From: Desulfobulbus propionicus DSM 2032
GTDB taxonomy: Bacteria; Desulfobacterota; Desulfobulbia; Desulfobulbales; Desulfobulbaceae
Direction: 5' to 3'
Length of the DNA: 32,000 nt
Assembly (NCBI RefSeq): GCF_000186885.1
Contig: NC_014972.1
Location: 2,310,001 to 2,342,000, forward strand
Shown piece after piece: positions 2,751 to 30,208 of the stretch. Position 1 is the first letter of the stretch. The number at the start of each line of letters is the position of its first letter. Below the pieces are notes generated by a model that saw only the letters and a list, made by a program, of their open reading frames with translations, had not been told where the DNA came from and did not search any database. Position numbers and translations under genes: made by a program.

Positions 2751-4964
<2,214 letters not shown>

Positions 4965-5178
4965 TGCCGCCTCTCCAGGGAACATGTTCGTGTCACACGC
5001 TATCAACTTATTTAAAATACTTCAAAATCGTCGATAGATCAAGCCCCTCCAACCCCTCGTTCACTTCCAGTAGCCGTTTCCCCTTTTATCGCCCGCAAGC
5101 GGTGACGATCCACGGACCCTTGCGCTACCGCCTCCGGAACCAGGCCGCGCCCGCTCCTTCCCTGTTCCCCCTTGCGCG

Positions 5179-15324: not shown

Positions 15325-15741
15325 CTATGGCGTCTCGGGGTGCGAGCGAACACCTCTCGCGGCGCGGAAAAGACTCCGCTCGATCCGCGACTGAATGAGC
15401 TCCAAAAGTCCTGGATTTTCCAAATAAGGACAGGGGGCGTCATAAGGGAATTCACGGCACTGCCTGGGGCGGGCCTCATGAATGGTGCAACGCTTGCACA
15501 TTCGATCATCGGCCAACAGGATGCAGGAGCCGTCTTCCCTTGTTTTGAAGGTATTTTTGTTCTCCAGATAGCGACGCCGCACCTCGCCGTCATTGATGCC
15601 AAAGTGACGGGCCAAGCGGTTGATATCCTCGGCGGTGAGATACAGGGTGGCACCGGGCAAACGATAGCAACAGTAACCGGGGCAGAAGGTACAGTAGGAT
15701 TTGTTGCGGGCTAAAACGTATTGTTTCGGCATGTCGTCCAT
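15325..15741 (-). CDS. YkgJ-family Cys-cluster protein (CxxCxxCC zinc/iron-chelating domain, UPF0153-like)
   Basis: Track ORF 15325..15744 begins at TTG; the ATG at 15741..15739 is preferred. Motifs are CTFCPGYCC and CILLADDRMCKRCTIHEARPRQCREFP. The ATG shares one nucleotide with the upstream regulator stop (TGATG). Confidence 0.75.
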   Translation of the reverse strand: MDDMPKQYVLARNKSYCTFCPGYCCYRLPGATLYLTAEDINRLARHFGINDGEVRRRYLENKNTFKTREDGSCILLADDRMCKRCTIHEARPRQCREFPYDAPCPYLENPGLLELIQSRIERSLFRAARGVRSHPETP

Positions 15742-17171
15742 CAACGAAAACTCCTTGATTCAATGTGGTACCGCCGTAGCAGACGCTGGAAAGCCTGCCG
15801 TTCCATGCCGCAGTTTCGTGCGGCGGCGGTGACGTTGCCGCCGGCCGCTTGCAAGGCCCCGGCCAGGTAGACGGCGTTGAACCGGTGGAGGATGGCATTT
15901 TTTGCTTCCCGGTAGGGCAAGTGATCCAGCCCCTCCACAGCCAGCGGTCCGTGGCCGGACTCCGCATGGGGTTGCGGCGGTACAGGCGATTCCGACTCCT
16001 CCCAGAGATCCGCCACCTCAAGGACTGAGCCGCGGCAAAGCAGCACAGCCCGGTTGATTGTGTTCTGCAGTTCACGGACATTGCCCTGCCATCTGTGCTG
16101 CATCAAAGCCTGCAAGGCCTCGTCGCTGAATTCCAGACCATCCCGTCCGTGCTCGCGGCTGTACCGCTCAAGAAAATGCTGGGCCAGCAGCGGGATATCG
16201 CCAACCATGGCCGCCAGGCTCGGCATGGTCACGGTCATGACGTTGAGCCGGTAAAAAAAATCCTCCCGAAACTCTCCCCGCCTGATCTTGGCTTCCAAAT
16301 CCTGGTTGGTGGAAGCGATTACCCGGACATCCACCCTGAAGGTCTTGGTTTGTCCCAGGGGCTGGACTTCTTTTTCCTGCAACACCCGCAGCAGCTTGGT
16401 CTGCACGCTCACCGGAATATCGGCCACCTCGTCCAGCAGGATGGTTGTACCGTCGGCTTCGACGAACAAGCCGATCTTGTCGCGATCCGCTCCGGTAAAG
16501 GCCCCCTTGCGGTAGCCGAACAACTCGCTCTCCAGGATATGCTCGGGCAATGCCGGGCAATTCACCGTGATCATGGGACGGCCGGCCCGCGGCGAGAGGC
16601 CATGCAGGGCCCGGGCCGCCAATTCCTTGCCGGTGCCCGATTCACCGCGAATGAGCACGGTGACGTTACTCGCCGCAATCCGCCGCAACAGATCCACGGT
16701 TTGGACCAAGCGCCGCGAACGGCCAATGAAACCGTGCTGTTGCTCCTGGCTGCTCAGCCGGTGCTGGAGCTGCACGTTTTCTCGCAGCAGCTGGGTTCGT
16801 TCGAAAGCCCGGCCGACGGTGCGGATGATCCGTTCGTTATCGAAAGGTTTTTCGATGAAATCGTAGGCCCCGTCCTTCAACGCCTGAACCGCCATGCCTA
16901 TGGTGCCGTAGCCGGTCATCAGGATGGTGGTCACCGCAGGATCGATCATCCCTATCTGCTGGAGCAAGGCCAGCCCGTCCATGCCCGGCATCTTGATATC
17001 CGTGAGCACCACATCGGGCGAATCGCCCCGCATCCGCTCCAAGGCCTCCTCGGCTGAAGTGGCCGCGGTCACGTCATAGCCGCCCTTTTTCACCAGCACC
17101 TTGGTCAACAAAGTGAGCATGTCGCGTTCATCGTCAACGACCAGTACCTTGGCCTGTTTTCCGTGCTCCAT
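15741..17171 (-). CDS. NtrC-family sigma54-dependent response regulator (REC + AAA+ + Fis-type HTH)
   Basis: Track ORF 15741..17183 begins at TTG; ATG 17171 (MEHGKQAKVLVVDDE) is preferred, with GAGAGGG upstream. REC has phospho-acceptor VVLTDIKMPGMDG. AAA+ has Walker A GESGTGKE, the GAFTGA loop (RKGAFTGAD) and Walker B ILLDEV. The C-terminal HTH is NVTAAARNCGMERQAFQRLLRRY. Confidence 0.93.
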   Translation of the reverse strand: MEHGKQAKVLVVDDERDMLTLLTKVLVKKGGYDVTAATSAEEALERMRGDSPDVVLTDIKMPGMDGLALLQQIGMIDPAVTTILMTGYGTIGMAVQALKDGAYDFIEKPFDNERIIRTVGRAFERTQLLRENVQLQHRLSSQEQQHGFIGRSRRLVQTVDLLRRIAASNVTVLIRGESGTGKELAARALHGLSPRAGRPMITVNCPALPEHILESELFGYRKGAFTGADRDKIGLFVEADGTTILLDEVADIPVSVQTKLLRVLQEKEVQPLGQTKTFRVDVRVIASTNQDLEAKIRRGEFREDFFYRLNVMTVTMPSLAAMVGDIPLLAQHFLERYSREHGRDGLEFSDEALQALMQHRWQGNVRELQNTINRAVLLCRGSVLEVADLWEESESPVPPQPHAESGHGPLAVEGLDHLPYREAKNAILHRFNAVYLAGALQAAGGNVTAAARNCGMERQAFQRLLRRYHIESRSFR

Positions 17172-17179
17172 GATCCCTC

Positions 17180-18223
17180 TCAATCGTTGGCGCCGACCAT
17201 GGCCTGAAAATAGAGCTGGACAAACTTACCGGACATGGTGTCGGCCGAGGAAAAGCGAAGATCGTCCGCTGGTGGGATGCGGCCGGTCAGGGTTTCAAAG
17301 GCGTGCCGCGACAAACCGGAGATCGTTCCTTGCAACTCATCGCTGCGACGTTCCTTATCTGGGATGCACCAATAGCGGCAACGCGGCGGCCGATCAGCAA
17401 AGACCAGGCAGCCATCCTGGCCAAGCAGCGGACAACGAAGCGGCGCTTCGGGAAAGGCGTCGGCCAAGGCATCGGCGCTCAAACCGGGCTGGCGGTGGTG
17501 AAGTTCCTTGAGCAGCCGGGCCAGGCCGAGGGCCCGATCAATCACCTGCTGACGCTGTTCCTGGGTGAGACTCCTGTTGATTGCCTGGCTGAGGTGCATG
17601 CTTTCTATCAGCAGAAGTTCAAACGGCCGGCCGCAGCAGGCCGTGTCCCCCCGGCCGCAGCAGGCGTGGTCCGCGGGCGGGCTCCACAGTTCGTCAAAAT
17701 GGGCGATCAGTTGATCAAAGGCCCGAAGCAACGGCGAAACATCCAGGGACGGACGGTTGTCGATCCGAGGCAGCGCCGTCTGCAAGGAACCCACCTGCTT
17801 GCCGTATTGTTTCAGAAAGCGACGTTGGGCGAAAGTGGCCGGATTGGCGCTTTTCCCCTTCATGGTCTGTTCCGCCCGTTTGTAGTCAAAGCCCCGGCGC
17901 AGCAAATAGGCGGCGATAAAGGTGCCGGTGCGACCATGCCCCATGCGGCAATGCACCAGCACCTTCTTGTCGAGATAGATGGCCTCGTCCATCCAGTCCA
18001 GCACCTGTTCCATGGCTTCGAGATCCGGGGCGCATTCGTCGACCACCGGCAGATAGCGGACCTCGAAGCCGCTGTTTTCCTCAATCTGATGCAGATCGCA
18101 GAACTCGCCGCAGAGATTGACAATGGCGCGAATTCCCTGGGCGCGAATGGCATCCAGATCCTCGTAGGACATGGGCGCGTGGCCAGTGGCCAAATGGGGG
18201 GTAATCCAGTTCAACTGGTACAT
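17180..18223 (-). CDS. Dual-specificity (Cys-based, CX5R) phosphatase domain fused to a C-terminal YkgJ-type Cys-cluster domain
   Basis: 347-aa ORF. The N-terminal ~150 aa are DSP-like, with a P-loop VLVHCRMGHGRTGTFIAAYLL. The C-terminal half carries ACCGRGDTACCGRPFELL and CPLLGQDGCLVFADRPPRCRYW, the same pattern as the stand-alone YkgJ protein at 15325..15741. The start lies 4 nt after the dikinase stop. Confidence 0.8.
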   Translation of the reverse strand: MYQLNWITPHLATGHAPMSYEDLDAIRAQGIRAIVNLCGEFCDLHQIEENSGFEVRYLPVVDECAPDLEAMEQVLDWMDEAIYLDKKVLVHCRMGHGRTGTFIAAYLLRRGFDYKRAEQTMKGKSANPATFAQRRFLKQYGKQVGSLQTALPRIDNRPSLDVSPLLRAFDQLIAHFDELWSPPADHACCGRGDTACCGRPFELLLIESMHLSQAINRSLTQEQRQQVIDRALGLARLLKELHHRQPGLSADALADAFPEAPLRCPLLGQDGCLVFADRPPRCRYWCIPDKERRSDELQGTISGLSRHAFETLTGRIPPADDLRFSSADTMSGKFVQLYFQAMVGAND

Positions 18224-18227
18224 GATT

Positions 18228-20792
18228 CTAGGGGATAATGGAAGTTGTGGAGCCGTGGAAGCGGTCGGCCTTTTGAAAAAACAGCTGCACGCGCGAATCG
18301 ATTTCTTCCTCGCGCAGCACCATGTCGAGCAATTTGGTCATGCCGAGCAAACGGCCCACCGCAACCAACACGTCCAACAGCTCGCCAGCTGGACAACCCA
18401 TCAGGCGGGCATCGAGCAGGTCGGCGCGAACACTGACCTCAAACCCCAAACGTCCGAGAATCTGCCGCAGCAAGGCAATGCGGATCGAGCGTCCCTGATA
18501 ATCGCCGCCCCCGCCGGCAAAGCGCAACTGGCAGTGATTGGCCCGGCTGTCGCGGCCGCAGAGGCAGTCAATCAAGGTGAAGTGAAAGCCAAAGCGCATG
18601 TTCAGATTGAGATACTCCGGGCTGACCACCGCATAGGAGGCAAAATCCTTGGACCCGCCGCTGGCGATGCCGCCGGCCAGGGCCATGTCGCCGAATCCCT
18701 GCCAATCGAAATGGAGGTGACTCTGCCAGTCGATCTCAGGACTGCTGAGCCCCTGCCACAGGGCAAGAAACGGTGCGGCCTGCAAGCTCTCGGGGGCGAT
18801 GGCCGCCTGCTGTTCCTCGTTGGCAAAGGCACCGCCCACGTCAAGGAGGTAGATGTCGAGAGGCAGTTCGGTGGCCAGCTTGCGGCAGCGGGAGGCGGCG
18901 CCGCCGGCAGCAATATCGCCGAGGCCAAACATGATCTGCACCGCTTTTTCATGGGCATAACGGATGATGTCATGCAGCGAGCGGCAGGATTGGGGTCTGA
19001 ACTCTGGAGAGTGCGGGTCGAGTAGATGCAAGGGGGTGATATGGTCGAGCAGGCTGCGCAGCTTGGCAGCGTAGGGCGATCCTGCCACCTTTGCTTTCTT
19101 GCGGCTGCTGTCCAACAGTGCGTCAATCTTGCCCGGATACACCCTGCCCTGGTCGCCATCGACAGTAACCTCCTGGCCTTCAGGCAGGAGGACACGGGCC
19201 TGGGTTGCCTCCACCAGCAACACCACCCCGAATTCCCGACAGACAGTGGCAAAATGCCCCGTCACCGACCCCTGCTCACAGATCACCGCCGCAAGTCGGT
19301 CGATATACCGCACCAGGGATGGCGCAATGTGGCGGGTGACCAGAACGGTGGCGGAATCGAGAGCGGCTTGTTCCAAGCGGTCGAGATGCCGAATCACCCC
19401 GAGGGCAACACCGCCGGCCGCCCGCTTGGCATTGGCAAGCAGGGGATGACATTTCGCAGGCAGAGGGTTCGTCGTTATTTTGGCTGGCGGCTCCGTTCTG
19501 GACGATTCCCGGCACAACGGCCGCGATTGGAGGATGAACAGATGTCCCTCTGAATCCATGGCCCACTCGATATCCTGCGGGACGACGAAAAAACGCTCCA
19601 GTTCCCGGCCAACAGCTGCAAGGCGCGCGGCTTGCGCCTGGGTGAGCGAAAGAGTCGCGGCCTGATCAGCTGCCAGATCCTTCTCTTGGAGCTGTCCTTG
19701 GAACAGAACCAGCTGCTGCCGCTGGTTGCCGGCAACGATCCGGGTGGGGTGCTCACTTTCCGGACCAAAAACGAAAACATCCGGAACTACCGCTCCTCCC
19801 ACCAAGGGGAGGCCGAGGCCGCGGATGCTGTGCACCAGCAAAGATTGTCCCTCGGTCACCGAGGGGTCGCGGCTGTAGAGCACGCCGCTGGCCACGCTTT
19901 CCACCATCACCAACACCAGCACCGCCATGGCCGCGTCCTCGTCGCCAATACCGGCATGGATGCGGTACAGCAGGGCCTGGGGGGTATACTTGGAGGCCAA
20001 CACCTCGAGATAGGCCGCCAGCAGTCCATCCCGGTCAATGCCAAGCAGTGAATGGTATTGGCCGGCAAAGCTGTGGTCACCGTCCTCGTGCAGGGCGGAG
20101 GATCGAACCGCGACCCGGAGGATTTCATCCGGCCCCGTGACGGCCAGGCGGTCGTATTCAGCCAGGATTTCCTGGGCCACCAGCGGCGGAAGCTCCATCC
20201 GCCGGATCAGGGTCATCAGCGCCTGCGAGGCCTCGTCCAGGCTGAGGGGCACTTCGAGGTCAATTGCGGCCAAGAGCAAATCCAGGGCGGGCCGCAGTCG
20301 ATTATGCTCGATCAACAGGTCAAAGGTCGTGGCGGTGATGGTGAAGCCGTCGGGTACCTGGGCTTTGGCCTCGTGTTTGAGCAACAGTAGATGTTGGCTC
20401 TTGTTGCCTACCAGGGACGGCTCCGCTGGACTGTTGTGGTCGACAACAAAGGGAGGAATCAAGAATCGCTCCGGCGGAGCCAACACCAGACGGGCGTAAA
20501 AATCGTACTTGTTGAAATAGTCGCGCAGTGAACCGGCTATTCCGGGATGCATCTGCTCCAGGGCGGCAATCATGCCAGCTACCGCCTCGGCCAATTGCCG
20601 ATAGCGGCCGCGAGTCCGCGCCAGGTCTTCCTTTCGCCCCTCGTGGTAAAGCACCTCGAACTCGGCCATCAATTCATGGCACCTGCCGTCGAACCCAAGC
20701 AAGGCCTTGAACCCCTCGTAGGTTTGCTGGAGGATCCGGTCCGGAGCGAACAGCCGCAGTGACCAGTGTTTAAACAGCGCGCCGACCGCCAT
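18228..20792 (-). CDS. PpsA/PPDK-family dikinase-like protein (ATP-grasp PPDK_N + swivelling phospho-His domain) with unassigned N-terminal (~125 aa) and C-terminal (300 aa) regions
   Basis: Track ORF 18228..20930 trimmed to ATG 20792 (MAVGALFKHWSL), with GGGGAGGGGGG directly upstream; it overlaps the thiL end by 23 nt. ATP-grasp motifs: LVGNKSQHLLLL, VRSSALHEDGDHSFAGQYHS, MAVLVLVMVESVASGVLYSRDP, DIEWAMDSEGHLFILQSRP. Swivel-His motif: EQGSVTGHFATVCREFGVVLLV. The last 300 aa (18231..19130) lack the GTNDL and CGE motifs of PEP-utilizers_C. Confidence 0.8.
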   Translation of the reverse strand: MAVGALFKHWSLRLFAPDRILQQTYEGFKALLGFDGRCHELMAEFEVLYHEGRKEDLARTRGRYRQLAEAVAGMIAALEQMHPGIAGSLRDYFNKYDFYARLVLAPPERFLIPPFVVDHNSPAEPSLVGNKSQHLLLLKHEAKAQVPDGFTITATTFDLLIEHNRLRPALDLLLAAIDLEVPLSLDEASQALMTLIRRMELPPLVAQEILAEYDRLAVTGPDEILRVAVRSSALHEDGDHSFAGQYHSLLGIDRDGLLAAYLEVLASKYTPQALLYRIHAGIGDEDAAMAVLVLVMVESVASGVLYSRDPSVTEGQSLLVHSIRGLGLPLVGGAVVPDVFVFGPESEHPTRIVAGNQRQQLVLFQGQLQEKDLAADQAATLSLTQAQAARLAAVGRELERFFVVPQDIEWAMDSEGHLFILQSRPLCRESSRTEPPAKITTNPLPAKCHPLLANAKRAAGGVALGVIRHLDRLEQAALDSATVLVTRHIAPSLVRYIDRLAAVICEQGSVTGHFATVCREFGVVLLVEATQARVLLPEGQEVTVDGDQGRVYPGKIDALLDSSRKKAKVAGSPYAAKLRSLLDHITPLHLLDPHSPEFRPQSCRSLHDIIRYAHEKAVQIMFGLGDIAAGGAASRCRKLATELPLDIYLLDVGGAFANEEQQAAIAPESLQAAPFLALWQGLSSPEIDWQSHLHFDWQGFGDMALAGGIASGGSKDFASYAVVSPEYLNLNMRFGFHFTLIDCLCGRDSRANHCQLRFAGGGGDYQGRSIRIALLRQILGRLGFEVSVRADLLDARLMGCPAGELLDVLVAVGRLLGMTKLLDMVLREEEIDSRVQLFFQKADRFHGSTTSIIP

Positions 20793-21804
20793 CCCCCCTC
20801 CCCTCGCCGTTGCGGAAATGATCAAACCCTCCATAGGTGACGGCCCGCTCCTCGGTGCGACCGTCCGGGAGTTGGCGCAGCAGGAGAACCCCTTCGCCAT
20901 GGACGATGGTGCCGACCGAAGCCAGGGCAAGCCCGCATTGTTCGCCGATTACCCGCAGGGAGTTCTCGGATTCCGGCGCGGCGGTGAAAAGCAATTCATA
21001 ATCCTCACCGCCGCCAATCATCCATTGGAGGGTATCGGCATGGCACAACCTCGCAGCCTCGTCTAAGGGAGCTATACCGGGCAGGGCCGACGAAGTCAGC
21101 CGTGCCCCCACCCCGGACCGCTTGCACAGGTGGGCGAGATCGGTGGCCAACCCATCAGAGAGATCCATCATCGCGTGCGCCAGCCCGGTTTTACCCAGCC
21201 GTTCCCCGAGCTCTACCCGGGCCCTGGGGTTCAGATGCTTCTCGTATAACGGACCAAAATCCTCCCGATCGATCATTCCCCGGTGGAGCAATTCCAGGCC
21301 GGCGGCAGCCAACCCGAGCGGGCCGCTGACCCAGATGACATCACCCGGCCTGGCACCGCTGCGATAGACCACCTGATCCACCGCTGCCTCGCCAATAACG
21401 GTCAGGCAGAAATTAAGCCCCTGCGGGCTGGCCACGGTATCGCCGCCAATGAGCAGGCAGCCGTATTCCCGGCAGGCATCATTCAGCCCCTGGGCAAACG
21501 CTTTGAACCAAGATTCGTCGAAACCGGGCGGCATGCCAACCGACAGCAGAACAAAAAGCGGCTTTCCCCCCATGGCACCGATATCGCTGACATTGACGGA
21601 AACTGCCTTGCGGCCCAGTTTTTCCGGCGGGTGAAAGGCGCAGTCAAAGTGGACCGATTCGATCAGGGTGTCCATGGTCAGCAGCCAGACTTCGTGATCA
21701 TTCTTGGCAATCACCGCGCAGTCGTCACCGATCCCTTGAATCAATCGTCCATCCATGGGGCCGACAAGTGTAGTGATGTATTCGATGAGTTGGCGTTCGT
21801 TCAC
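20770..21804 (-). CDS. thiL: Thiamine-monophosphate kinase
   Basis: Track ORF 20770..21855 starts at GTG. The start is set at GTG 21804..21802 (VNERQLIEYITTLVG), which forms a GTGA overlap with the ptsI stop (21803..21801). This gives the usual ~24 residues before GIGDDCAV. Other motifs: DTLIESVHF, GRKAVSVNVSDIGAMGG, LIGGDT, GGGEDYELLFT. Confidence 0.88.
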   Translation of the reverse strand: MNERQLIEYITTLVGPMDGRLIQGIGDDCAVIAKNDHEVWLLTMDTLIESVHFDCAFHPPEKLGRKAVSVNVSDIGAMGGKPLFVLLSVGMPPGFDESWFKAFAQGLNDACREYGCLLIGGDTVASPQGLNFCLTVIGEAAVDQVVYRSGARPGDVIWVSGPLGLAAAGLELLHRGMIDREDFGPLYEKHLNPRARVELGERLGKTGLAHAMMDLSDGLATDLAHLCKRSGVGARLTSSALPGIAPLDEAARLCHADTLQWMIGGGEDYELLFTAAPESENSLRVIGEQCGLALASVGTIVHGEGVLLLRQLPDGRTEERAVTYGGFDHFRNGEGRGDGGRRAV

Positions 21805-23594
21805 GATTGATAAAAATCTCTTGGATAAAAACGTTGAAAGAAATCGGTCACACACGCACGCACCTCGCCACTGTCCGCGCAGTGGAGGACCTCTTGGGCC
21901 AATAAGTGCAGCTCTCCGCTGTGGGAATGCCGTAACAACCGTTTGATCCAGGGAATAACCGCAGGGCGCATCGACAGCTCATCCAGCTCAAACCCTATCA
22001 ACAGCGGGGCACAAAGAGGGTCACCGGCCATCTCGCCGCAGAGCGACACGGGAATGGCGCGGGCATGGCCGGCGTCGACCGTCTGTCGGATCATCCGCAG
22101 CACCGCGGGATGAAAGGGGTCGTACAAATGAGCCACATACTGATTGCCGCGGTCAATGGCCAGGGAATACTGGATCAGGTCGTTGGTGCCGATGGCAAAA
22201 AAATCCACTTCCATGGCAAGGACATCGCTCATGATCACGGCACTGGGAACTTCGATCAACACCCCGATTTCAAGGTCCTGGTCAAAAGGGATTCCTTCGG
22301 CCGCCAATGCATTCATCGAGTCGTGGATCATCTCCTTTGCCTGGCGCAGTTCCTGCAAGGTTGACACGAGAGGCAGCAAAACGCGCAACCGGCCATGGAC
22401 CGAGGCCCGGAGCAGCGCTCGCACTTGACAGCGAAAAATCTCCCGCTCGTACAGGGAAAAACGAATCGAACGCAGACCGAGAGCCGGATTGCGTTCCCGA
22501 TCGAGCCACGCCTTGTTGCCGGGAAAACGGGCAAGGATCTTATCGCCGCCTACATCGAGGGTGCGGATGGTCACCGGATGCGGGGCCATAGTTGCCAGGA
22601 GGCGGGAATACGTAGCCAGTTGCGCCTCTTCCGTCGGTGGCCGGATCCCTTGAAAAAAATCGAATTCGCTGCGAAACAGCCCTATTCCCTCCGATCCGTA
22701 GCGAAGCACGGCAGAGAGTTCCTCCAGCATCTCGATATTGGCGCTCAAGCGAACGGGACACCCATCCTTGGTTTCCGAGGTCAGATGCACATAGCGGTCC
22801 AGCCCCTCGGCCACGGCGCGATAGTGCTGATCGTTCTCCTGCAGTCGAATAATTTCATTAGGTTGGGGATGAACGACCACCTGGCCCGTTCCGCCGTCGA
22901 GGATAATCGGCTCGCCGGTGTGCAGGATGGAGGTCGCATGCTCCAGGCCGACCACCGCCGGTATATTGAGAGATCGAGCGACGATGGCGGTATGGGAGAT
23001 TGTCCCCCCTTTTTCCGTTATGAAACCAAGAACATTGGCCGACTGCAGTCGCAGGGCATCCTCTGGCGAGAGATCATTGGCAACCAGGATGGTGGGCTGG
23101 TCTGCTGTCTTGCCCTTGGGCGCATATTCCCGGCCGGTAAGCAGACCGAATACCCGATCGGCCACATGCTTGATATCGGCATATCGGTCGCGAATATAGG
23201 GATCGTCAATCAGGGCGAACCGCTCCTTGATTTCGTTCAGGGTCTGGGTCAACGCCCATTCCGCATTGACCTTGTTTTCCCGGATAATGGCCGCGGTGCG
23301 TTCGACAAACATCCGGTCTTGGAGCATCAGCAAATGGGAATCGATGATCGACAAGGCATCATCCATGTGGTCAGCCAACTGCTGCCGCAACTGGATGAGT
23401 TCCTCCCGGGCGGCAGAGATGGCCTGGAAAAAACGTTGGATCTCCGATGCAAGGTGCTCGGCCGGCAGGTGGCACCAACCAGCTCGCCACGTCTGCCGTT
23501 TGACGACAACGACCGTGGCGACCACAATACCGGGCGACACACCAATGCCCTGTAAGACGCGGGAAGTTGTCGACCTGCTTTTCGTATTCTCCAT
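21801..23594 (-). CDS. ptsI: Phosphoenolpyruvate-protein phosphotransferase (PTS Enzyme I)
   Basis: 597-aa ORF with the active-site His context EKGGTISHTAIVARSLNIPAVVG and C-terminal barrel motifs FFAIGTNDLIQYSLAIDRGN and SLCGEMAGDP. Confidence 0.93.
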   Translation of the reverse strand: MENTKSRSTTSRVLQGIGVSPGIVVATVVVVKRQTWRAGWCHLPAEHLASEIQRFFQAISAAREELIQLRQQLADHMDDALSIIDSHLLMLQDRMFVERTAAIIRENKVNAEWALTQTLNEIKERFALIDDPYIRDRYADIKHVADRVFGLLTGREYAPKGKTADQPTILVANDLSPEDALRLQSANVLGFITEKGGTISHTAIVARSLNIPAVVGLEHATSILHTGEPIILDGGTGQVVVHPQPNEIIRLQENDQHYRAVAEGLDRYVHLTSETKDGCPVRLSANIEMLEELSAVLRYGSEGIGLFRSEFDFFQGIRPPTEEAQLATYSRLLATMAPHPVTIRTLDVGGDKILARFPGNKAWLDRERNPALGLRSIRFSLYEREIFRCQVRALLRASVHGRLRVLLPLVSTLQELRQAKEMIHDSMNALAAEGIPFDQDLEIGVLIEVPSAVIMSDVLAMEVDFFAIGTNDLIQYSLAIDRGNQYVAHLYDPFHPAVLRMIRQTVDAGHARAIPVSLCGEMAGDPLCAPLLIGFELDELSMRPAVIPWIKRLLRHSHSGELHLLAQEVLHCADSGEVRACVTDFFQRFYPRDFYQS

Positions 23595-23603
23595 GCCTGT
23601 TTA

Positions 23604-23873
23604 TCAGGAATCATCCTGGCTAGTAAGCAGCACAAGGGCAGCCTGCAACGCCCCTTCAGCCCTGTCGCCATCGGCACGCAAGGTCAGGTTCGTTCCCTCG
23701 ACCAGGGCAAGGGCCAGAACATCGAGGATTGAAGAACAATCAACCGTTTCATCTGCTCGGCTGATGGACAGCACCACACCGAATTCCGCCGCAATTCCCG
23801 CCAGCCGGGTGGCCACCCGGCTGTGCACCCCGCGCCGATTGCCGACAACAAGGTCGCACGCACAGGTCTTCAC
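23604..23873 (-). CDS. ptsH: HPr-family phosphocarrier protein
   Basis: 89-aa ORF with a GTG start. His15-like site GNRRGVHSRVATRLA and a Ser46-like region DCSSILDVLALAL. It ends 9 nt upstream of ptsI, and its GTG overlaps the upstream gene stop as GTGA. Confidence 0.85.
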   Translation of the reverse strand: MKTCACDLVVGNRRGVHSRVATRLAGIAAEFGVVLSISRADETVDCSSILDVLALALVEGTNLTLRADGDRAEGALQAALVLLTSQDDS

Positions 23874-24250
23874 TTGACAATCCGCAAACCCGGTTTTCGC
23901 GGCCCTTGTTGTTGCCCTTTTCGTCGCGCCGTTGGATCAATTGCCTCGCTCGCGGGCGGGTCAAACCGAACCGCCTTGATAAATCTTCCCTCACCGCCCA
24001 TGGTGAAGGTTTCCTGGCCGGTGAACTGGGGCGTGCGCAGGGTCCAAATCACCGTCTGCACCGGAATGGACAACAGGTGCAGGGTCACATGCCACCATTC
24101 CTCCTTGCGGGTCTGATCGCGTTCGATATCGCCCACTAATGCGTACACGAGCATCTGCGGTGATTTTGCAGCAATAAGAACAATATCGCCCACGGTGGTG
24201 GTTTCTTTGAAGGACACAATTTTTTTGAGCTCAGCAACCAACTGTTCCAT
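23870..24250 (-). CDS. Hypothetical 126-aa protein with a basic C-terminal tail, coupled to ptsH
   Basis: ATG-initiated ORF (MEQLVAELKKIVSFKETTTVGDIV...) whose stop TGA (23872..23870) overlaps the ptsH GTG (23873..23871). No family recognised. Support is positional (operon context and overlap) only. Confidence 0.55.
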   Translation of the reverse strand: MEQLVAELKKIVSFKETTTVGDIVLIAAKSPQMLVYALVGDIERDQTRKEEWWHVTLHLLSIPVQTVIWTLRTPQFTGQETFTMGGEGRFIKAVRFDPPASEAIDPTARRKGQQQGPRKPGLRIVK

Positions 24251-24312: not shown

Positions 24313-25965
24313 TCAGTGGCGCATCGTATATTCGATCTCCAGCGCCAGTTCATCCTCGTGGGCGTAGCTGCGGAGGCGGCTGGTTTCAATTGACTCCATC
24401 CGCTTTAAGGCGGGAAGCACAATCTGTTGAATCAGCACTCTGGTCTCCGGCGTCAGGATGTCTGTCTTTCCCCCGTTGCCCTTGGCCAGGAGGGTCAACA
24501 AAGGAAGCAATCGTTGCACGATCTGGCCTGTTCGTAGAAAAAGAATAACATTGCTCCCTTCCCTGACAGTGTCCCGCGCAGCCTGATCAGATTGGACGAT
24601 ATATCGATGCACTTGTTCGATCAGGTCAACACGGTCGGCGAAAACGAGCATGTTTCCCATGAGAGAATAGGCCGGTTGCAGCAACCCGCCGGCGAGAATG
24701 ACGGAGACAATTTCCGCTTTCTCGCTGACCACGGTTACCGCTTGAAGATCGGCAAGCATCTTCCTGAGCAATGCCTCAACCCGGCCACGGTCACGCACCT
24801 CAATGGCCACACAAGCCATGGAGCGAGGCGATTGATGAGCCTCCTGCTGTCTCGTTATGAATACCCCGAATTCGCTGCCGAATACATCAAAAAACGTTTG
24901 CGTGGTTTGTTCGGTGGCGTGCGCGAGGTAGGTGGAAAAATTGGCCAGGAGGGAGGTGACCTCGGGTGTCCCCGTGTTTTGTACTAACTCCCAGAACGAT
25001 TGCAGATTGAACCAGTTGGTCCAAAAGAGAAACTCTGTCTCTGGAGAAATGTATTGAAACCATCGTCTCTCCACAGGGAACGTCATATGATATCGGTTGG
25101 TTAACGCAGACAAACGTTCCTGATCGATCAGAGCCAGCGCGCCAAACCGTCCTTTTCCGCCGTCGTGCTGGTGAAAGAGAGCAATCTGTTGCAGAGGGCT
25201 TTCTTCTCCGTCTTTACCTAAATAAGGAAAGGGAGATAGAACCTGGAAATTGGCGAAGAGAAAGGGATCGGCCTTGGCCCCGGCAAATGTTTTCAACCGA
25301 TGATACCGTTGATTGACCCGTAATCCGGTCTGATTCTGCACCATGTGCTGCAAGGATTGATTGATGCATCGTTGCACCGACCGTGCCGTCAAAGAGGCGA
25401 TCAATATCTGGCGGGTCAGGCAGTACGATACTGCAATTCCGTGGTCAAATTGAAGTGTGACCAGACGTTGCCGTTGGTAGGTCGAAACCGAGGTTGACCG
25501 GACCGGGCCGAAAGAATCCTCAAACCATTGCAGCGGTACAGTTTCCTTGGGCACCCGGACGAGGACGACCAAATTATGGGCCATCGATTCGTTGGACAAT
25601 CGTGTTTGCGATGGATCTGGCAACAAGGCAACAGCGGCTTTGCGGGTGAACAGTTGCGCGAACAGAGGCACCTTGGTGACCTGCTCAATGGAGGCGCCAA
25701 AGGTGGACAGTTGGCGGGTAAATGATTCCGGTAGCCCCTGCCTGGAAAGCAAGGATACCAGGTCGAAACGACGCAGCTGCTCCCCGACCAGGCTCTGACG
25801 CCATTGGCCCCAAGTGTGGGCCAGGTTGTCACCCTCGAGCACGATAGCGGTTTCTGCAGGGAGAAAATCGACCAATTCGGGAGTCGGCGGACGTTGGCGG
25901 GTAAGCCAATACCCGCTCAGCCCCACAACGAGGCAACTAGCCATCAGCGCTAACAATCGTTTCAT
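24313..25965 (-). CDS. Membrane-anchored/exported protein of unknown function (~550 aa; size and layout reminiscent of DUF3352-type proteins, unverified)
   Basis: Track ORF 24313..26025 trimmed to ATG 25965 (MKRLLALMASCLVVGLSGYW, signal-anchor-like). It overlaps the hybrid kinase 3' end by 29 nt. No catalytic motifs recognised. Confidence 0.65.
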   Translation of the reverse strand: MKRLLALMASCLVVGLSGYWLTRQRPPTPELVDFLPAETAIVLEGDNLAHTWGQWRQSLVGEQLRRFDLVSLLSRQGLPESFTRQLSTFGASIEQVTKVPLFAQLFTRKAAVALLPDPSQTRLSNESMAHNLVVLVRVPKETVPLQWFEDSFGPVRSTSVSTYQRQRLVTLQFDHGIAVSYCLTRQILIASLTARSVQRCINQSLQHMVQNQTGLRVNQRYHRLKTFAGAKADPFLFANFQVLSPFPYLGKDGEESPLQQIALFHQHDGGKGRFGALALIDQERLSALTNRYHMTFPVERRWFQYISPETEFLFWTNWFNLQSFWELVQNTGTPEVTSLLANFSTYLAHATEQTTQTFFDVFGSEFGVFITRQQEAHQSPRSMACVAIEVRDRGRVEALLRKMLADLQAVTVVSEKAEIVSVILAGGLLQPAYSLMGNMLVFADRVDLIEQVHRYIVQSDQAARDTVREGSNVILFLRTGQIVQRLLPLLTLLAKGNGGKTDILTPETRVLIQQIVLPALKRMESIETSRLRSYAHEDELALEIEYTMRH

Positions 25966-28639
25966 GTTTGCCCAGCCTGTGCTTCGGGGGGTCCGGCACT
26001 CTCGTTGGCTGCAGATATTTTTCAATTATTTTCAAAACGCTGGAACCATCAATCGGCTTGGACACATAGTCATCCATGCCCGAAGAAAGACACTTTTGCC
26101 GGTCACTGGGCATGGCATGGGCGGTCATGGCAATGATGGGGATATGCTGATTGTCGCCTTCTGCCTCGCGGATTCGCGCAACCGCTTCATATCCGTCCAT
26201 TTCAGGCATCTGGATATCCATGAGAATACAATCAAAAAGGCCGCCACGCCAGGCATCCACAGCTTTTCGCCCGTTTTCCACCACGGTCACCTGATATCCG
26301 GCCTGTCGCAGAAGGGTTCGAATCAAAATTTTGTTGATATATTCATCCTCGGCCACCAGAATTCGTTGCCCGTGGTTTGATAGAGGCATTTGTTCATCAG
26401 ATGGCGAGGAAGGTTCTCTGCTTGGCTTCTGACTTTGCTCGATATCGGGGACAGTGATCGGCAAGGTAAAAGAGAATCGAGTTCCCTTGGCCAGTTCACT
26501 TTCAAACCAAATTCTCCCTCCCATGAGTTCCACTAGCCCCTTGGAAATGGATAGACCGAGTCCTGTGCCGCCAAAACGGCGGGAATGGGAGGAATCGGCT
26601 TGGGAAAAGGATTCGAACACTTTGTCATAGTAGGTGGGAGCGATCCCTATACCGGTATCGGCTACCTCAAACAAAAGCATATCGCCATTGGCAAAGGAAT
26701 TTGGGGACGGTTGGTTCGACACGGTAAGGGTAATCTGTCCTTTGCGTGTAAATTTGAGACTGTTATCGATCAGATTGGTGAGCACTTGCATAATCTTGGT
26801 TTGATCGCCAACCAGCATGTCCGGAACATTCGGAGCAACAATCAAGTGGAGTCGAAGATTTTTACGTTGCGCTGTCGGTTCCATGGGCTGGATCACTTCA
26901 TTGAGCAGATTACGCAAAGAAAACAACCGCTGCTCGAGTTCGAAACGGCCAGCCTCCAACTTGGAAAAATCAAGAATATCATTGATAATAATCATGAGCC
27001 GGATGGCGGATCGATGAATCAACTCCAATTGCTGCCGCTGAAGATCAGGTAAGTCCTCCCGCAACAAAATATTGGACAAGCCTATAATGCCATTCATAGG
27101 AGTGCGTATCTCGTGACTCATGTTGGCCAAAAATTCGCTTTTGGCTATGCTGGCGGTTTCGGCCGCTTCCCTAGCATGATAGAGTTCTTTTTCCACCGCC
27201 TTTCGTCGTGAAATATCTTCGATAACCCAAACTGTCCCTTTGGCGAGATCCTGGGGAGAAATAGCTTTACCGCTCAAGGTGCAAGGAATGAGGGAGCCGT
27301 CTTTCTTCTTGAGTTGGTATTCGATCTGCTCGACGTCTCCTTCTGCAAGCAAGTGAAGGTGTTCCCGGACAAAATGGCGAAAGGATTGTCGATCTGAAAA
27401 AAATTGCCGGATGTCTCCTGAAAGGATTTCTTCCCGAGAGTAACCGAAAATATCAGACATCCGTTTGTTTACATTGATAATTTTTCCCATGCGAACCAGG
27501 ATGATGCCAACTAGACTGGCACTGAAAATGGTTTCCAATTCCAATACAGAAACCCGTCTGGCGGATTCCGCCCGGTCACTTGCCTCCTGGCCCGCCAACA
27601 CTTGACTGGTCAGTTCCTGTTCCTTATGCGAATGGAGAACAATACTACCAGTCAGGATTCCCAACGACAGAACAATGCTATTGAGTACAAGAACAATTGC
27701 CCAAGGAAAAGGGGCGGGGACAAGAGTTGCTATGGACCAACCACTGTTGGAAAGCGGCAGAAGATCAACTGAATAACGAAGATTATTGCGATGAATAATA
27801 GGAGCTTGAAGGGAAAAAGGCAGTGAGGATAAAGAATGGTCACCAAATTGACGACCATCCTTAATTTCTTGCAACCGTTCTGGAGCTATTTTCCAAGCTG
27901 CTTTAAAGTTCCATTCATTTTTGGTTGAAGCAAAAACAATACCGTCGTTTGAAACAAGGAGCGCGTCAAAAGTATCTTTGATATGGGAAAAAAAGATATC
28001 GGCAGAGGTATCGGATGTTTTAATTACAACAACGCCGATTGGTTTTCCATGACTCGTTGTATAAATCGGTGCACCAAAATAGAACCCTCTTCGTTTGGTG
28101 GTCACGCCGACAGCAGGATAAAAAGTGGGATTACCGGCCAACGCATGAAAAAAATAGGGACGAAATGGGTATTCATTACCGGTGAGACTCGGTTCATCAA
28201 CATTCGCGGAACTACCAATCACAGTCCCTTCATGGTTCATGACATAGACTAGGGCAGCATTGAGTACCCCTTGGGCCGTATTCAAGACGCGGAGCAAGTT
28301 GCTGTTGTCACTATCTGTCTTTCCGACACAAACATCAATTATTTCTGAATACTTGGCTAACTCAAGGGCGGCGTTGGTATAGTTGGCTATGATATAGTTC
28401 TTCAGTTCTGCAGCCAGGTTAGTTGTTATGGGATGCTGTTCTTTCTTATACCGGAAAAGGATGTATTGATCGCTGCCAAGACTCACCAGGGCGAGACACA
28501 GCAAGGTAAATGCACCGATACAAACGAGTCGTCGCCGCACAGTGCCCAATGATTGATAAAAACCGCGGGAAGAAAAGGATTTACTGTTCTCAGGTGTTTC
28601 AATACTCAACGGATCGAACTCCAAGGGGCAAATGGTCAC
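25937..28639 (-). CDS. Hybrid sensor histidine kinase/response regulator (periplasmic Cache-like domain, TM, PAS, HisKA, HATPase_c, REC)
   Basis: 900-aa ORF starting at GTG 28639; there is no in-frame ATG before TM1, so the start is uncertain. TM1 is LVCIGAFTLLCLALVSLG. A ~270-aa extracytoplasmic region has a Cache-like pattern (RPYFFHAL, GAPIYT, GVVVIK). Then TM2 and PAS, H-box FLANMSHEIRTPMNGIIG, N-box LTNLIDNSLKFT, G1 DTGIGI, G2 GGTGLGLSISK, and REC RILVAEDEYIN...DCILMDIQMPEMDG...DDYVSKP. Confidence 0.9.
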   Translation of the reverse strand: MTICPLEFDPLSIETPENSKSFSSRGFYQSLGTVRRRLVCIGAFTLLCLALVSLGSDQYILFRYKKEQHPITTNLAAELKNYIIANYTNAALELAKYSEIIDVCVGKTDSDNSNLLRVLNTAQGVLNAALVYVMNHEGTVIGSSANVDEPSLTGNEYPFRPYFFHALAGNPTFYPAVGVTTKRRGFYFGAPIYTTSHGKPIGVVVIKTSDTSADIFFSHIKDTFDALLVSNDGIVFASTKNEWNFKAAWKIAPERLQEIKDGRQFGDHSLSSLPFSLQAPIIHRNNLRYSVDLLPLSNSGWSIATLVPAPFPWAIVLVLNSIVLSLGILTGSIVLHSHKEQELTSQVLAGQEASDRAESARRVSVLELETIFSASLVGIILVRMGKIINVNKRMSDIFGYSREEILSGDIRQFFSDRQSFRHFVREHLHLLAEGDVEQIEYQLKKKDGSLIPCTLSGKAISPQDLAKGTVWVIEDISRRKAVEKELYHAREAAETASIAKSEFLANMSHEIRTPMNGIIGLSNILLREDLPDLQRQQLELIHRSAIRLMIIINDILDFSKLEAGRFELEQRLFSLRNLLNEVIQPMEPTAQRKNLRLHLIVAPNVPDMLVGDQTKIMQVLTNLIDNSLKFTRKGQITLTVSNQPSPNSFANGDMLLFEVADTGIGIAPTYYDKVFESFSQADSSHSRRFGGTGLGLSISKGLVELMGGRIWFESELAKGTRFSFTLPITVPDIEQSQKPSREPSSPSDEQMPLSNHGQRILVAEDEYINKILIRTLLRQAGYQVTVVENGRKAVDAWRGGLFDCILMDIQMPEMDGYEAVARIREAEGDNQHIPIIAMTAHAMPSDRQKCLSSGMDDYVSKPIDGSSVLKIIEKYLQPTRVPDPPKHRLGKHETIVSADG

Positions 28640-28825: not shown

Positions 28826-28859
28826 TTTATGATAAACCATCATGAACGGAGGGAAGTCC

Positions 28860-29168
28860 ATGCGAAAGAAGCGTCACAACTACAGCCCTGAAGAGAAGGT
28901 CTTTATCCTGAAACGGCACTTGGTTGGCCGAGAGGCGGTTTCGGATTTGTGCGACGAATACCAATTGCAGCCGAAGATTTTTTACGATTGGCAGAAGCAG
29001 TTCTTTGAAAAAGGGGCTTCAGCGTTTGCCCGTGAAGGAAAGAGCAAACAGCAGGCGGAGGAGAAGCGCATTCGTGAGCTTGAGGAGAAATTGCGCCGGA
29101 AACATGAAGTGCTTTCGGAACTGCTGGAGGAGCATATCCAGTTAAAAAAAGAACTTGGGGAGCTCTGA
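28860..29168 (+). CDS. IS3-family transposase OrfA (HTH DNA-binding / leucine-zipper part)
   Basis: Track ORF 28842..29168. ATG 28860 is preferred because GGAGGG (28848-28853) lies 6 nt upstream. Sequence MRKKRHNYSPEEKVFILKRHL...IFYDWQKQF, followed by a coiled-coil EEKRIRELEEKLRRKHEVLSELLEE. Confidence 0.85.
   Translation: MRKKRHNYSPEEKVFILKRHLVGREAVSDLCDEYQLQPKIFYDWQKQFFEKGASAFAREGKSKQQAEEKRIRELEEKLRRKHEVLSELLEEHIQLKKELGEL
29144..29150 (+). other. Programmed -1 ribosomal frameshift site (A AAA AAA) joining orfA to orfB
   Basis: Seven consecutive A residues are read as TTA AAA AAA GAA in the orfA frame. Slipping -1 gives an open frame from 29150 (RTWGALNGGWVPHDTRDAVVDFSRRW...) that is continuous with orfB. 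This is the typical IS3-family arrangement. Confidence 0.7.
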
Positions 29169-29203
29169 ATGGCGGTTGGGTTCCCCATGACACCCGCGAT
29201 GCC

Positions 29204-30208
29204 GTGGTTGATTTCAGTCGCCGGTGGAGTGCAAAAGCAGAAATACCCACCAACAGGCTCATCGTCTGGCTTGGCGTGGCGCGGAGTAAATTTTACGCCT
29301 GGATTGGCCGTTGCGGCAAGGCAAACGAACATAACGGTCTAATCCCTCGTGACTTCTGGCTGGAGTCCTGGGAGCAGGAGGCCATCATCCGGTTTGCGCT
29401 CGATCATCCCCTGGAAGGGTATCGGCGGTTGACGTTCATGATGCTTGATCGGGACATTGTTGCCGTCAGTCCGAGTAGTACCTGGCGAGTCTTGGCCAAG
29501 GCCGGTTTGCTCAAGAAGTGGAACCGAAAAAACAGCGCCAAGGGAAATGGCTTCGTGCAACCGCTTCGTCCTCATGAACATTGGCATATCGATGTGTCAC
29601 ATCTCAATATCTGCGGCACCTTTTATTATCTATGCAGCCTGCTCGACGGCTGCAGCCGTTTCATCGTTCATTGGGAGATCCGGGAGCAGATGACGGAGCA
29701 GGATGTGGAGATCATTGTCCAACGGGCCAAGGAGAAATACCCCGAAGCCCGGCCTCGGATCATCTCCGATAACGGCCCGCAATTCATTGCCAAGGATTTC
29801 AAGGAATTCATCCGGCTCTCCGGCATGACGCACGTGCGGACATCACCGTACTATCCGCAGTCCAACGGCAAGTTGGAGCGATTTCATGCCACCATCAAGG
29901 GAGAGTGCATTCGCCCCGGCGTACCGCTTTCCCTTGACGACGCCCCGAGGATGGTGGAGAAGTTCATTGCCCACTACAACAACGTCCGGCTGCATAGCGC
30001 CATTGGCTACGTGGCTCCAGTGGACAAGCTCAGTGGCAGGGAGCAGGAAATTTTCAAAGAGCGGGACCGGAAACTGGAAGCGGCCAGAGAACTGAGGAAG
30101 ACAAAACGGCTTCGGGCGCCGTCGGCAAACCCGATGCTCTCTCAAAAAGACAATACGGCTCCTTCGGAGTCCTTACTGCAAACGGCAAGATTGTCCATTT
30201 CCAACTGA
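29204..30208 (+). CDS. IS3-family transposase OrfB (DDE / rve integrase core), probably made as an OrfAB fusion
   Basis: Track ORF starts at GTG 29204, and the frame is open from 29150. The DDE triad contexts are HWHIDVSH, IISDNGPQF and YPQSNGKLERFH, with a YNNVRLHSAIGY tail. Confidence 0.9.
   Translation: MVDFSRRWSAKAEIPTNRLIVWLGVARSKFYAWIGRCGKANEHNGLIPRDFWLESWEQEAIIRFALDHPLEGYRRLTFMMLDRDIVAVSPSSTWRVLAKAGLLKKWNRKNSAKGNGFVQPLRPHEHWHIDVSHLNICGTFYYLCSLLDGCSRFIVHWEIREQMTEQDVEIIVQRAKEKYPEARPRIISDNGPQFIAKDFKEFIRLSGMTHVRTSPYYPQSNGKLERFHATIKGECIRPGVPLSLDDAPRMVEKFIAHYNNVRLHSAIGYVAPVDKLSGREQEIFKERDRKLEAARELRKTKRLRAPSANPMLSQKDNTAPSESLLQTARLSISN

Follow-up and report, generated by a model that had tools for sequence, protein, structure and literature searches.

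A PpsA-like dikinase of Desulfobulbus propionicus with a previously undescribed predicted C-terminal domain and a partner phosphatase: a candidate module of reversible phosphorylation

The DNA analyzed here, referred to in the following as the window, is a stretch of 32,000 nucleotides from Desulfobulbus propionicus DSM 2032 (contig NC_014972.1, positions 2,310,001 to 2,342,000). On its reverse strand lies a gene for a PpsA-like dikinase, which we call PpsL, followed by the gene for a phosphatase. Both belong to a tightly packed operon of ten genes, with gaps of 4 nt or stop/start overlaps around the dikinase gene (Table 1). As called mechanically, the dikinase open reading frame (ORF) reaches back to a TTG codon at 20930, while the ATG at 20792 yields the 854-residue protein. 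The ATG start agrees with the N-termini (M....LFKHWS) and lengths (≈840–860 residues) of 78 full-length relatives.

Table 1. Features of PpsL, its partner phosphatase and their operon; positions count from the first letter of the window.
Feature	Position	Strand	Basis or remark
Operon gene 7, dikinase (PpsL), 854 aa, PpsA-like	18228..20792	-	ORF; stop codon 18228-18230
N-terminal extension, aa 1-125	20418..20792	-	Four long predicted helices
ATP-grasp (PPDK_N), aa 127-436	19485..20414	-	PF01326, E = 4.9e-67
Phosphohistidine swivel (PEP-utilizers), aa 480-549	19146..19355	-	PF00391, E = 2.9e-16
New C-terminal domain, aa 556-854	18231..19127	-	Linker helices, then alpha+beta core (predicted); presumed acceptor site
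Operon gene 8, partner phosphatase, 347 aa	17180..18223	-	DSP/PTP domain, aa 4-140, and Cys-rich C-terminal domain, aa ~185-290
Operon gene 1, PAS hybrid histidine kinase	25937-28639	-	Pfam
Operon gene 2, 570-aa protein	24313-26025	-	No Pfam or PADLOC match
Operon gene 3, 126-aa protein	23870-24250	-	No Pfam or PADLOC match
Operon gene 4, HPr, 89 aa, GTG start	23604-23873	-	PF00381, E = 4.1e-16
Operon gene 5, Enzyme I	21801-23594	-	PF02896, PF05524, PF00391
Operon gene 6, ThiL (thiamine-phosphate kinase)	20770-21855	-	TIGR01379, 316 vs cut-off of 184 bits
Operon gene 9, sigma-54 response regulator (REC + AAA+ + HTH)	15741-17183	-	PF00158, 7.5e-66; PF00072, 9.9e-30
Operon gene 10 (last), small CxxCxxCC protein	15325-15744	-	PF03692, E = 3.8e-10

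A Pfam scan of the 854-residue protein returned the ATP-grasp and swivel families and nothing beyond them. An earlier note on this DNA, made from the letters alone, had proposed searches with PF01326, PF00391 and PF02896; the first two profiles matched and PF02896, the PEP-utilizers_C barrel of the phosphoenolpyruvate (PEP) synthases, did not. The note had also described the catalytic motifs as intact, and they are: VRSSALHEDGDHSFAGQY and DIEWAMD..LFILQSRP of the ATP-grasp and GSVTGHFATVCREFG of the swivel all occur in the translation. Invariant residues of the ATP-grasp are R230, S231, S232, E236, D237, D407, E409, Q422 and R424, and the catalytic histidine of the swivel, His513 (codon 19254–19256), is invariant in both a 79-sequence and an 18-sequence set. 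A full-length AlphaFold2 model made from 79 sequences had a pLDDT of 85.8 and a pTM of 0.81. When this model was submitted to Foldseek, it matched PpsA (2ols), rifampicin phosphotransferase (RPH; 5hv1-3 and 5hv6), HpeI (9goj) and pyruvate phosphate dikinase (PPDK), the best matches having aligned lengths that correspond to the ATP-grasp alone or to ATP-grasp plus swivel. With both domains present and with the catalytic His and the nucleotide-site residues kept, PpsL belongs to the His-swivel dikinase superfamily.

The similarity to PEP synthases ends where the third domain begins. The match to solved PEP synthases stops at aa 560–572, where the barrel would start, and the alignments to the NCBIfam PpsA models stop at aa 561–565, with scores of 250.2 bits against a cut-off of 598 (NF005057) and 240.2 against 739.75 bits (TIGR01418). 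No Pfam family matched the last 305 residues, even at E ≤ 10. The C-terminal stretch quoted by the earlier note, KIDALLDSS...STTSIIP, occurs in the translation, and the GTNDL and CGE motifs are, as the note stated, missing from the dikinase and present in the Enzyme I of the same operon (PF02896 E = 9e-100). Its placing of Enzyme I three genes upstream has to be corrected: the Enzyme I gene is the second one upstream, with that for ThiL in between, and the third is that for the 89-residue HPr. A direct comparison by hhalign of a profile made from the C-terminal domain only with the barrel of the window's Enzyme I gave a probability of 0.7%, and a profile search of the PDB with 43 C-terminal sequences produced matches only through swivel residues contained in fragment sequences.

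These results bear on the simplest explanation, that PpsL is a genuine, divergent PEP synthase or a decaying paralogue with a functionless C-terminus. We give this almost no credence. It is true that PEP synthases score best among the full-length matches in the databases and that public records name the relatives of PpsL “pyruvate, water dikinase” or “PEP/pyruvate-binding domain-containing protein”. However, PF02896 is absent at any threshold, the equivalog scores fall far under their cut-offs, and the predicted fold contains no barrel. A divergent TIM barrel, considered as a candidate for the C-terminal region, was ruled out by the Pfam search at E ≤ 10, the hhalign comparison and the predicted secondary structure. 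Having neither the barrel nor an equivalog-level score, the dikinase is, as judged from its sequence, not a PEP synthase.

Modeled in isolation with AlphaFold2, the last 305 residues gave a pLDDT of 77.9 and a pTM of 0.72, with block means mostly above 90 across the core at aa ≈90–290. The predicted fold is made of antiparallel strands and packed helices; it has no beta/alpha repeat and is not a (beta/alpha)8 barrel. Foldseek found no PDB match below 1e-3 for this domain (best E = 5e-3, TMq ≤ 0.22 among the 50 matches listed) and no match in BFVD, and it is in this sense, no match in PDB or BFVD, that we refer to it as having no known fold. The structure prediction and fold search that the earlier note had suggested for this region thus yielded an alpha+beta domain, and no alignment of the C-terminal 300 residues to the PEP-utilizers_C barrel emerged from Pfam, hhalign or the predicted fold. 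In the full-length model, the confidence of the helix that carries the LHDIIRxxHE motif (aa 606–630) rose from ≈60 to ≈90, which we take as a sign of packing against another domain, while the conserved loop at aa 694–712 (HFDW...GGI) remained flexible. The same motif, together with the DxGGG and GGGG loops, recalls the H-, G1- and G2-boxes of histidine kinases, and there was a weak Foldseek match to DesK. A DHp/CA module was rejected on the grounds that the Foldseek probabilities were 0.07–0.11, that neither HATPase_c nor HisKA matched at E ≤ 10 and that the topology did not fit. On the predicted structure, the C-terminal domain is a previously undescribed domain that takes the place of the pyruvate/PEP barrel. 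This lends support to the earlier note's suggestion that an unrecognized third domain means an acceptor other than pyruvate; which acceptor that would be is a matter of inference.

The C-terminal domain is strongly constrained. The residues that do not vary between subclades are C603, H607, D608, R611, H614, E615, D651, W679, W689, Y727, N729, F734, H737, C745, N752, F758, G760, G761 and R771. A profile made from this domain only retrieved 1425 clusters at 50% identity (E ≤ 1e-3), 732 of them at E ≤ 1e-30. In the best 150 of the 1425 clusters, the domain was always found at aa ≈520–850 and solely behind PPDK_N and the swivel; the shorter entries among them are probably fragments at contig ends. 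Relatives are present in at least 537 GTDB species genomes, and the best 80 are nearly all from Desulfobulbales. Compared with the window protein, distant subclades retain 31–43% identity in the C-terminal domain and 32–39% in the ATP-grasp. That the former is at least as conserved as the latter fits a functional domain for a non-pyruvate acceptor, and conservation on this scale excludes decay. The constraint has the pattern expected, from the sequences, of a catalytic or acceptor-binding domain and not of a decaying tail. A full-text literature search found no description of this dikinase family, nor of a bacterial dikinase paired with a dual-specificity phosphatase (DSP).

Ahead of the ATP-grasp, the protein has the N-terminal extension of ≈125 residues that had been noted before; PF01326 starts at aa 127. 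In the full-length model, its helices comprise aa 2–15, 17–50, 57–81 and 86–104, with a pLDDT of 83–97 from aa 21. For the first 125 residues, neither Pfam (E ≤ 10) nor a sequence search of the PDB gave a match, and no separate fold search was run with them. In Pfam (2025 copy), NCBIfam release 20 and PADLOC, there is no model for either the N- or the C-terminal domain. The extension is kept within Desulfobulbales and is the most variable part of the protein across subclades (13–33% identity), which suggests an element for regulation or docking that is particular to the lineage.

The phosphatase gene begins 4 nt past the dikinase stop codon. Its product matched PF22784 (3.5e-19), PF22785 (2.1e-18) and PF00782 (3.6e-11, above its cut-off). 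Cys92 lies in the P-loop HCRMGHGRTG (aa 91–100), whose canonical HC-X5-R-T-G form is kept across the phosphatase family, and the general-acid Asp (P-V-x-D...P) is present in the window phosphatase and in both of the dikinase–phosphatase fusions described below. By P-loop, Asp and profile match, the partner is a phosphatase of the dual-specificity/protein tyrosine phosphatase (PTP) fold, and its closest solved relatives are archaeal and bacterial PTPs, human DUSPs (DUSP10, DUSP23, VHR) and PTEN. The Cys-rich domain that follows (≈200 aa, 17180–17773) carries CC pairs at aa 188–189 and 196–197, as well as C264, C272, C282 and C286. It was considered as a member of PF03692, the family of the small CxxCxxCC protein at the end of the operon, and rejected: it has only a short C..C...RP..CR motif in common with that protein (E = 0.33) and no Pfam match. 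The presence of a Cys-rich domain in the phosphatase and of the CxxCxxCC protein in the operon suggests a metal or redox input.

To compare gene neighborhoods, the window's neighbors were run by tblastn against the 80 best loci, all Desulfobulbales-like; the wider family outside these loci was sampled through seven contexts. The phosphatase gene was directly downstream of the dikinase gene in 73 of the 75 loci with enough flank (72 found by script, plus L039, missed only owing to the overlap of the two genes), and the Cys-rich domain was covered in 71 of 76 phosphatase matches. There are also independent fusions. Two relatives, P0220 (1252 aa) and P0250 (1205 aa), contain the dikinase, the DSP and the Cys-rich domain in a single chain, and both are encoded behind a PhnD-like binder, a PAS kinase and a receiver that stands alone. 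A third fusion, P0302 (1248 aa; locus L088, 2636–6382), has an N-terminal LMWPc domain (aa 1–130) ahead of the dikinase. The Cys pattern of this domain (CSGNSIRS ... LCSDAGRVCP ... FDDP) resembles that of thioredoxin-coupled arsenate reductases and not the DPYY loop of low-molecular-weight PTPs. Finally, P0305, which belongs to a type with an additional ConA-like tail, is followed by a 171-residue DSP whose start overlaps the dikinase stop codon. Downstream genes, fusions and the ConA-tail locus together indicate that coupling to a Cys-X5-R phosphatase is a family trait that has been realized in four ways. Toxin and “SAK” DSP families had raised the idea of an anti-phage defense system; it was rejected, with no PADLOC match for the dikinase, the phosphatase or three neighbors.

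Such coupling could mean that the phosphatase regulates the dikinase, by removing an inhibitory or activating phosphate in the manner in which PDRP and PSRP act on PPDK and PpsA, and that the two have no common external substrate. PPDK and PpsA are known to undergo regulatory phosphorylation beside their catalytic His, Thr511 lies two residues ahead of His513 in the window protein, and tight linkage and fusion would also suit a dedicated regulator. However, the position two residues ahead of the His varies, with Ala as the consensus of the family, which disfavors action of the phosphatase on the dikinase. In addition, PDRP/PSRP have a different fold (DUF299) with a kinase activity of their own, and the explanation leaves the conserved, enzyme-like C-terminal domain unaccounted for and still in need of an acceptor. 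We consider it very unlikely.

The genes around the pair suggest a role in signaling. The start of the sigma-54 response regulator gene overlaps the phosphatase stop codon, and a regulator of this kind was found behind the phosphatase in 47 of the 61 loci with enough flank. Where no such gene is present, the neighbors of the pair are a stand-alone receiver, sensor kinases (PAS histidine kinase) and a binding protein like PhnD. The ten-gene order is repeated, at 45–48% identity, in three loci (L081, L082 and L083), e.g., in Desulfolithobacter dissulfuricans; the hybrid kinases of these loci also carry a dCache domain. In Desulfobulbus-type loci, the CxxCxxCC protein is kept behind the regulator. 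The 570- and 126-residue proteins hold the same place, in the order hybrid kinase, these two, HPr, in L081–L083 and many Desulfobulbus-type loci.

HPr, whose gene is too short to figure in the default list of ORFs, and Enzyme I constitute a phosphorelay pair of the phosphotransferase system; no genes for its Enzyme II components are present within the window. The ThiL gene, which overlaps the dikinase start, sits in translational coupling between those of Enzyme I and the dikinase, an unusual site for a thiamine-salvage gene, and occurs there in one clade only. ThiL was found upstream in 21 of 57 loci and Enzyme I in 16 of 45 (those with enough flank), and these two and HPr were rejected as core partners, being present solely in the Desulfobulbus-type clade.

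Behind the regulator, loci of other Desulfobulbales (L081, L082, L083 and L044) have genes for a small uncharacterized protein, a PAS histidine kinase and a stand-alone receiver, and also one for a molybdopterin oxidoreductase of ≈950 residues with a TorD-like (Nitrate_red_del) domain fused to it. In place of this region, the window has lon-clpX-clpP-tig on the opposite strand. Directly upstream of the first gene of the operon is an IS3-type insertion sequence-like element (28842–30208, +), with ORFs for HTH_Tnp_1 (28842–29168) and an rve integrase core (29204–30208). Elsewhere in the window (2751–6561, -), a gene for polyphosphate kinase 1 (2751–5006) adjoins one for a PpnN-type nucleotide 5'-monophosphate nucleosidase (5179–6561).

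The reading that we favor, with modest confidence, is that PpsL is a His-swivel dikinase that phosphorylates an acceptor other than pyruvate and that the phosphatase reverses this step, inside a signaling operon. Following the chemistry described for the family (PMC4844700, PMC12167813 and PMC13553574), ATP would be bound by the ATP-grasp, and His513 would take the beta-gamma pyrophosphoryl group with release of AMP. The gamma-phosphate would then be lost as Pi, and the swivel would carry His513~P to the C-terminal domain. This domain, with H607, D608, R611, H614, E615 and the loops LDVGG and RFAGGGG as putative site, would bind the non-pyruvate acceptor and pass the phosphoryl group to it. 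Linkage and fusion suggest that the Cys-X5-R phosphatase would remove that phosphate; on this proposal, the phosphatase reverses the dikinase step, and the two act as writer and eraser that together determine how far one common target is phosphorylated. From their company of sigma-54 regulator, receivers and sensor kinases, the pair would be part of a signaling circuit and not of bulk metabolism, with the Cys-rich domain of the phosphatase and the N-terminal extension of the dikinase as likely regulatory inputs.

Among classes of acceptor, we place a protein side chain first, as a possibility that falls somewhat short of probable, a small molecule or messenger second and a glycan or other polymer a good way behind, with the remainder going to other options, among them an action of the phosphatase on the dikinase. 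A protein would be favored by the PTP-like eraser, the neighboring receivers and regulators and the logic of a kinase/phosphatase switch. In a more far-reaching form, which we put forward only tentatively, the family would be a new class of signaling enzyme, with PpsL as a kinase of protein hydroxyls (e.g., of tyrosine, chemically a phenol as are the substrates of phenol-type dikinases) or of polymer hydroxyls that works with a dedicated PTP-fold eraser. Such a pair would be a bacterial system of reversible phosphorylation, not recognized before, that converts ATP to AMP and Pi in place of a Hanks, BY or histidine kinase and feeds sigma-54/two-component control in the sulfur-cycling Desulfobulbales.

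Several points weigh against a protein target, or against a cycle between the two enzymes. Tight linkage and fusion are no proof of a common substrate; the role of the phosphatase might be to control the dikinase itself, or to catalyze a subsequent step of a pathway. The acceptor pocket is strongly conserved in lineages without adjacent receiver genes (L085, L088), which argues against a protein target specific to the operon. We know of no member of the superfamily that phosphorylates a protein hydroxyl. The docking of the swivel onto the C-terminal domain is an assumption of this proposal. A consensus scan of the window for sigma-54 promoters gave 21 matches where 20 are expected, none of them well placed. 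Lastly, the ConA/CBM66-like tail of one subclade points towards a carbohydrate.

That tail is a 205-residue ConA-like beta-sandwich at the C-terminus of relatives of ≈1035–1085 residues (e.g., P0251, P0253 and P0258). Its profile matches CBM66, a carbohydrate-binding module (CBM), of the Bacillus subtilis levanase (E = 2.9e-9), with weaker matches to Pfam lectin and 3-keto-disaccharide-hydrolase families. On another reading, PpsL could be a glycan dikinase and its partner a glycan phosphatase, a bacterial counterpart of glucan, water dikinase (GWD) with SEX4, LSF2 or laforin. The C-terminal domain would bind a cytoplasmic polysaccharide (polyglucose or glycogen), the dikinase would esterify it and the DSP would remove the phosphate, thereby controlling the solubility and turnover of the polymer. 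The CBM66 match, the protein of the ConA-tail type that is followed by a DSP and a set of C-terminal invariants rich in Trp, Tyr, Phe, His, Asn and Asp all agree with this picture. On the other hand, no genes for glycogen or polysaccharide metabolism were found in any neighborhood examined, the window dikinase has no CBM, and ConA-like domains bind non-sugar ligands too. The best solved relatives of the DSP are protein phosphatases, with no glucan phosphatase among the 60 listed. The P-loop motif of glucan phosphatases carries an Ala, which the CR[HML]G[HILQ]GR loop of this family lacks. The pairing of dikinase and DSP does mirror that of GWD and the glucan phosphatases (PMC13553574), but the domain order and the acceptor domain of PpsL are unlike those of GWD, whose central domain is all-helical (PMC13553574). 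Taken together, we regard a glycan system as distinctly unlikely.

A small-molecule acceptor is a less remote alternative to the favored writer/eraser pair, if still on the unlikely side. The dikinase and phosphatase might set the level of a phosphorylated signaling metabolite, in the manner of PFK-2/FBPase-2, or the dikinase might activate a hydroxyl or oxyanion for its Cys-X5-R/Cys-rich partner, as steps of a pathway and not a cycle. Several characterized non-pyruvate members of the superfamily do act on small molecules, such as rifampicin (PMC4844700) and phenols or hydroxyphenylethanones (PMC12167813), and PigC and RedH are among the NCBIfam matches of PpsL. The acceptor pocket is kept across lineages with unrelated neighborhoods, and the best Pfam families of the DSP (PTP-SAK, Tc-R-P and PTP-NADK) are not classical protein phosphatases. 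The LMWPc domain fused to the dikinase in P0302, with its ArsC-like Cys pattern, would also suit such a substrate. So would the oxyanion and sulfur genes found near some of the pairs: those for TauE, YedE-TusA, a chromate transporter, PhnD-like binders and the Mo-oxidoreductase. The P0220 fusion (L087, 1465–4235) lies a few genes from a cluster of YedE-like (Sulf_transp), TusA and Se_S_carrier genes, and in L051 and L081 the pair has genes like that of the TauE sulfite exporter on its flanks; these neighbors may indicate a link to sulfur-compound metabolism. The chromate-transporter gene is two genes away from that of P0302, beyond a gene for a major facilitator superfamily transporter. However, the oxyanion genes are an anecdotal observation from a few loci, and there are no consistently linked biosynthetic or catabolic enzymes; the constant partners are the phosphatase and signaling proteins. 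The acceptor domain, moreover, appears unrelated to the substrate domain of RPH and HpeH, and the domain order differs.

What is new in the writer/eraser pair is the acceptor domain and the obligatory phosphatase partner; the catalytic chassis is known. The third domain decides what is phosphorylated in this superfamily, and earlier acceptor domains have revealed antibiotic resistance, starch turnover, aromatic catabolism, pigment synthesis and virulence regulation. Given the obligate coupling of the family to Cys-based phosphatases and its place in two-component/sigma-54 operons, the acceptor bound by the domain described here would be that of a reversible phosphorylation module. The near-obligate pairing and the repeated fusion to phosphatases offer a concrete experimental handle on the target. 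Several of the Desulfobulbales, among which the family is common, disproportionate sulfur compounds. With sigma-54 regulators and sensor kinases as its neighbors, the dikinase may supply a layer of control that is missing from the present picture of their energy metabolism. To label the family as PEP synthases, as public records do, appears to be mistaken and would skew metabolic reconstructions of gluconeogenesis in the species concerned.

Of the known systems, PpsA and PPDK are the closest in their catalytic part. They share PF01326 and PF00391 and the order of ATP-grasp, swivel and acceptor domain with PpsL, with homology up to aa ≈565–572, and the formation of AMP and Pi via His~PP and His~P is presumably common to all. 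PpsL differs from them in having an alpha+beta domain instead of the PEP-utilizers_C barrel with its GTNDL and CGE motifs, a four-helix extension and an obligate phosphatase, and in failing the equivalog cut-offs.

VadK shows that relatives of the dikinases can move out of central carbon metabolism and take up a regulatory role. Against PRK05878 (534 positions), which we take to be the NCBIfam model that matches VadK, PpsL scored 78 bits, with a cut-off of 456; the length of this model suggests a short protein without a large acceptor domain, whereas PpsL has a third domain of 300 residues and a dedicated phosphatase. By this score, PpsL is not of the VadK type. VadK (Rv1127c of Mycobacterium tuberculosis) is a regulatory kinase derived from PPDK that has diverged from the latter's role in carbon metabolism (PMC13400623). 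The likeness to PpsL lies in its being such a relative, a regulatory His kinase that phosphorylates itself (PMC13400623).

In the His-swivel dikinases RPH, PigC/RedH and HpeHI, the acceptor is not pyruvate and is set by a domain that is no barrel, and in RPH (PMC4844700) and HpeHI (PMC12167813) the acceptor domain has been found to determine specificity. The ATP-grasp is the part that matches best in structure, with a TM score of 0.84–0.87 to 5hv6 (normalized to the target). In RPH and HpeH, however, the substrate domain is followed by a C-terminal swivel, whereas in PpsL the swivel is internal and the acceptor domain comes after it. RPH was not among the 50 listed Foldseek matches of the C-terminal domain, which showed no detectable likeness to the rifampicin-binding domain. 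The NCBIfam scores were 184 against a cut-off of 999 for RPH and 147 against 1300 for PigC, and both matches were split into two stretches, of which the ATP-grasp scored best. By domain order and substrate domain, PpsL is not of the RPH/PigC type.

GWD with SEX4, LSF2 or laforin offers a functional analogy, in that a phosphate ester is put on by a His-swivel dikinase and taken off by a DSP-fold phosphatase (PMC13553574), and one subclade of the PpsL family bears a domain like a carbohydrate module. The order in GWD is two CBM45 modules, an all-helical central domain, the His domain and the ATP domain (PMC13553574). Relative to this order, that of PpsL is reversed, with the helical extension followed by the ATP domain, the His domain and the alpha+beta domain. 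The window pair also differs in lacking a CBM, in having a Cys-rich phosphatase that is closer to protein PTPs and in the placing of the dikinase genes in signaling operons. By its architecture, PpsL is not of the GWD type.

In HprK/P, AceK and PFK-2/FBPase-2, opposing activities that are co-encoded or fused set the phosphorylation of one regulatory target. Their folds and chemistry are unrelated to those of PpsL and its phosphatase, but the logic of the pair would, by analogy, be alike.

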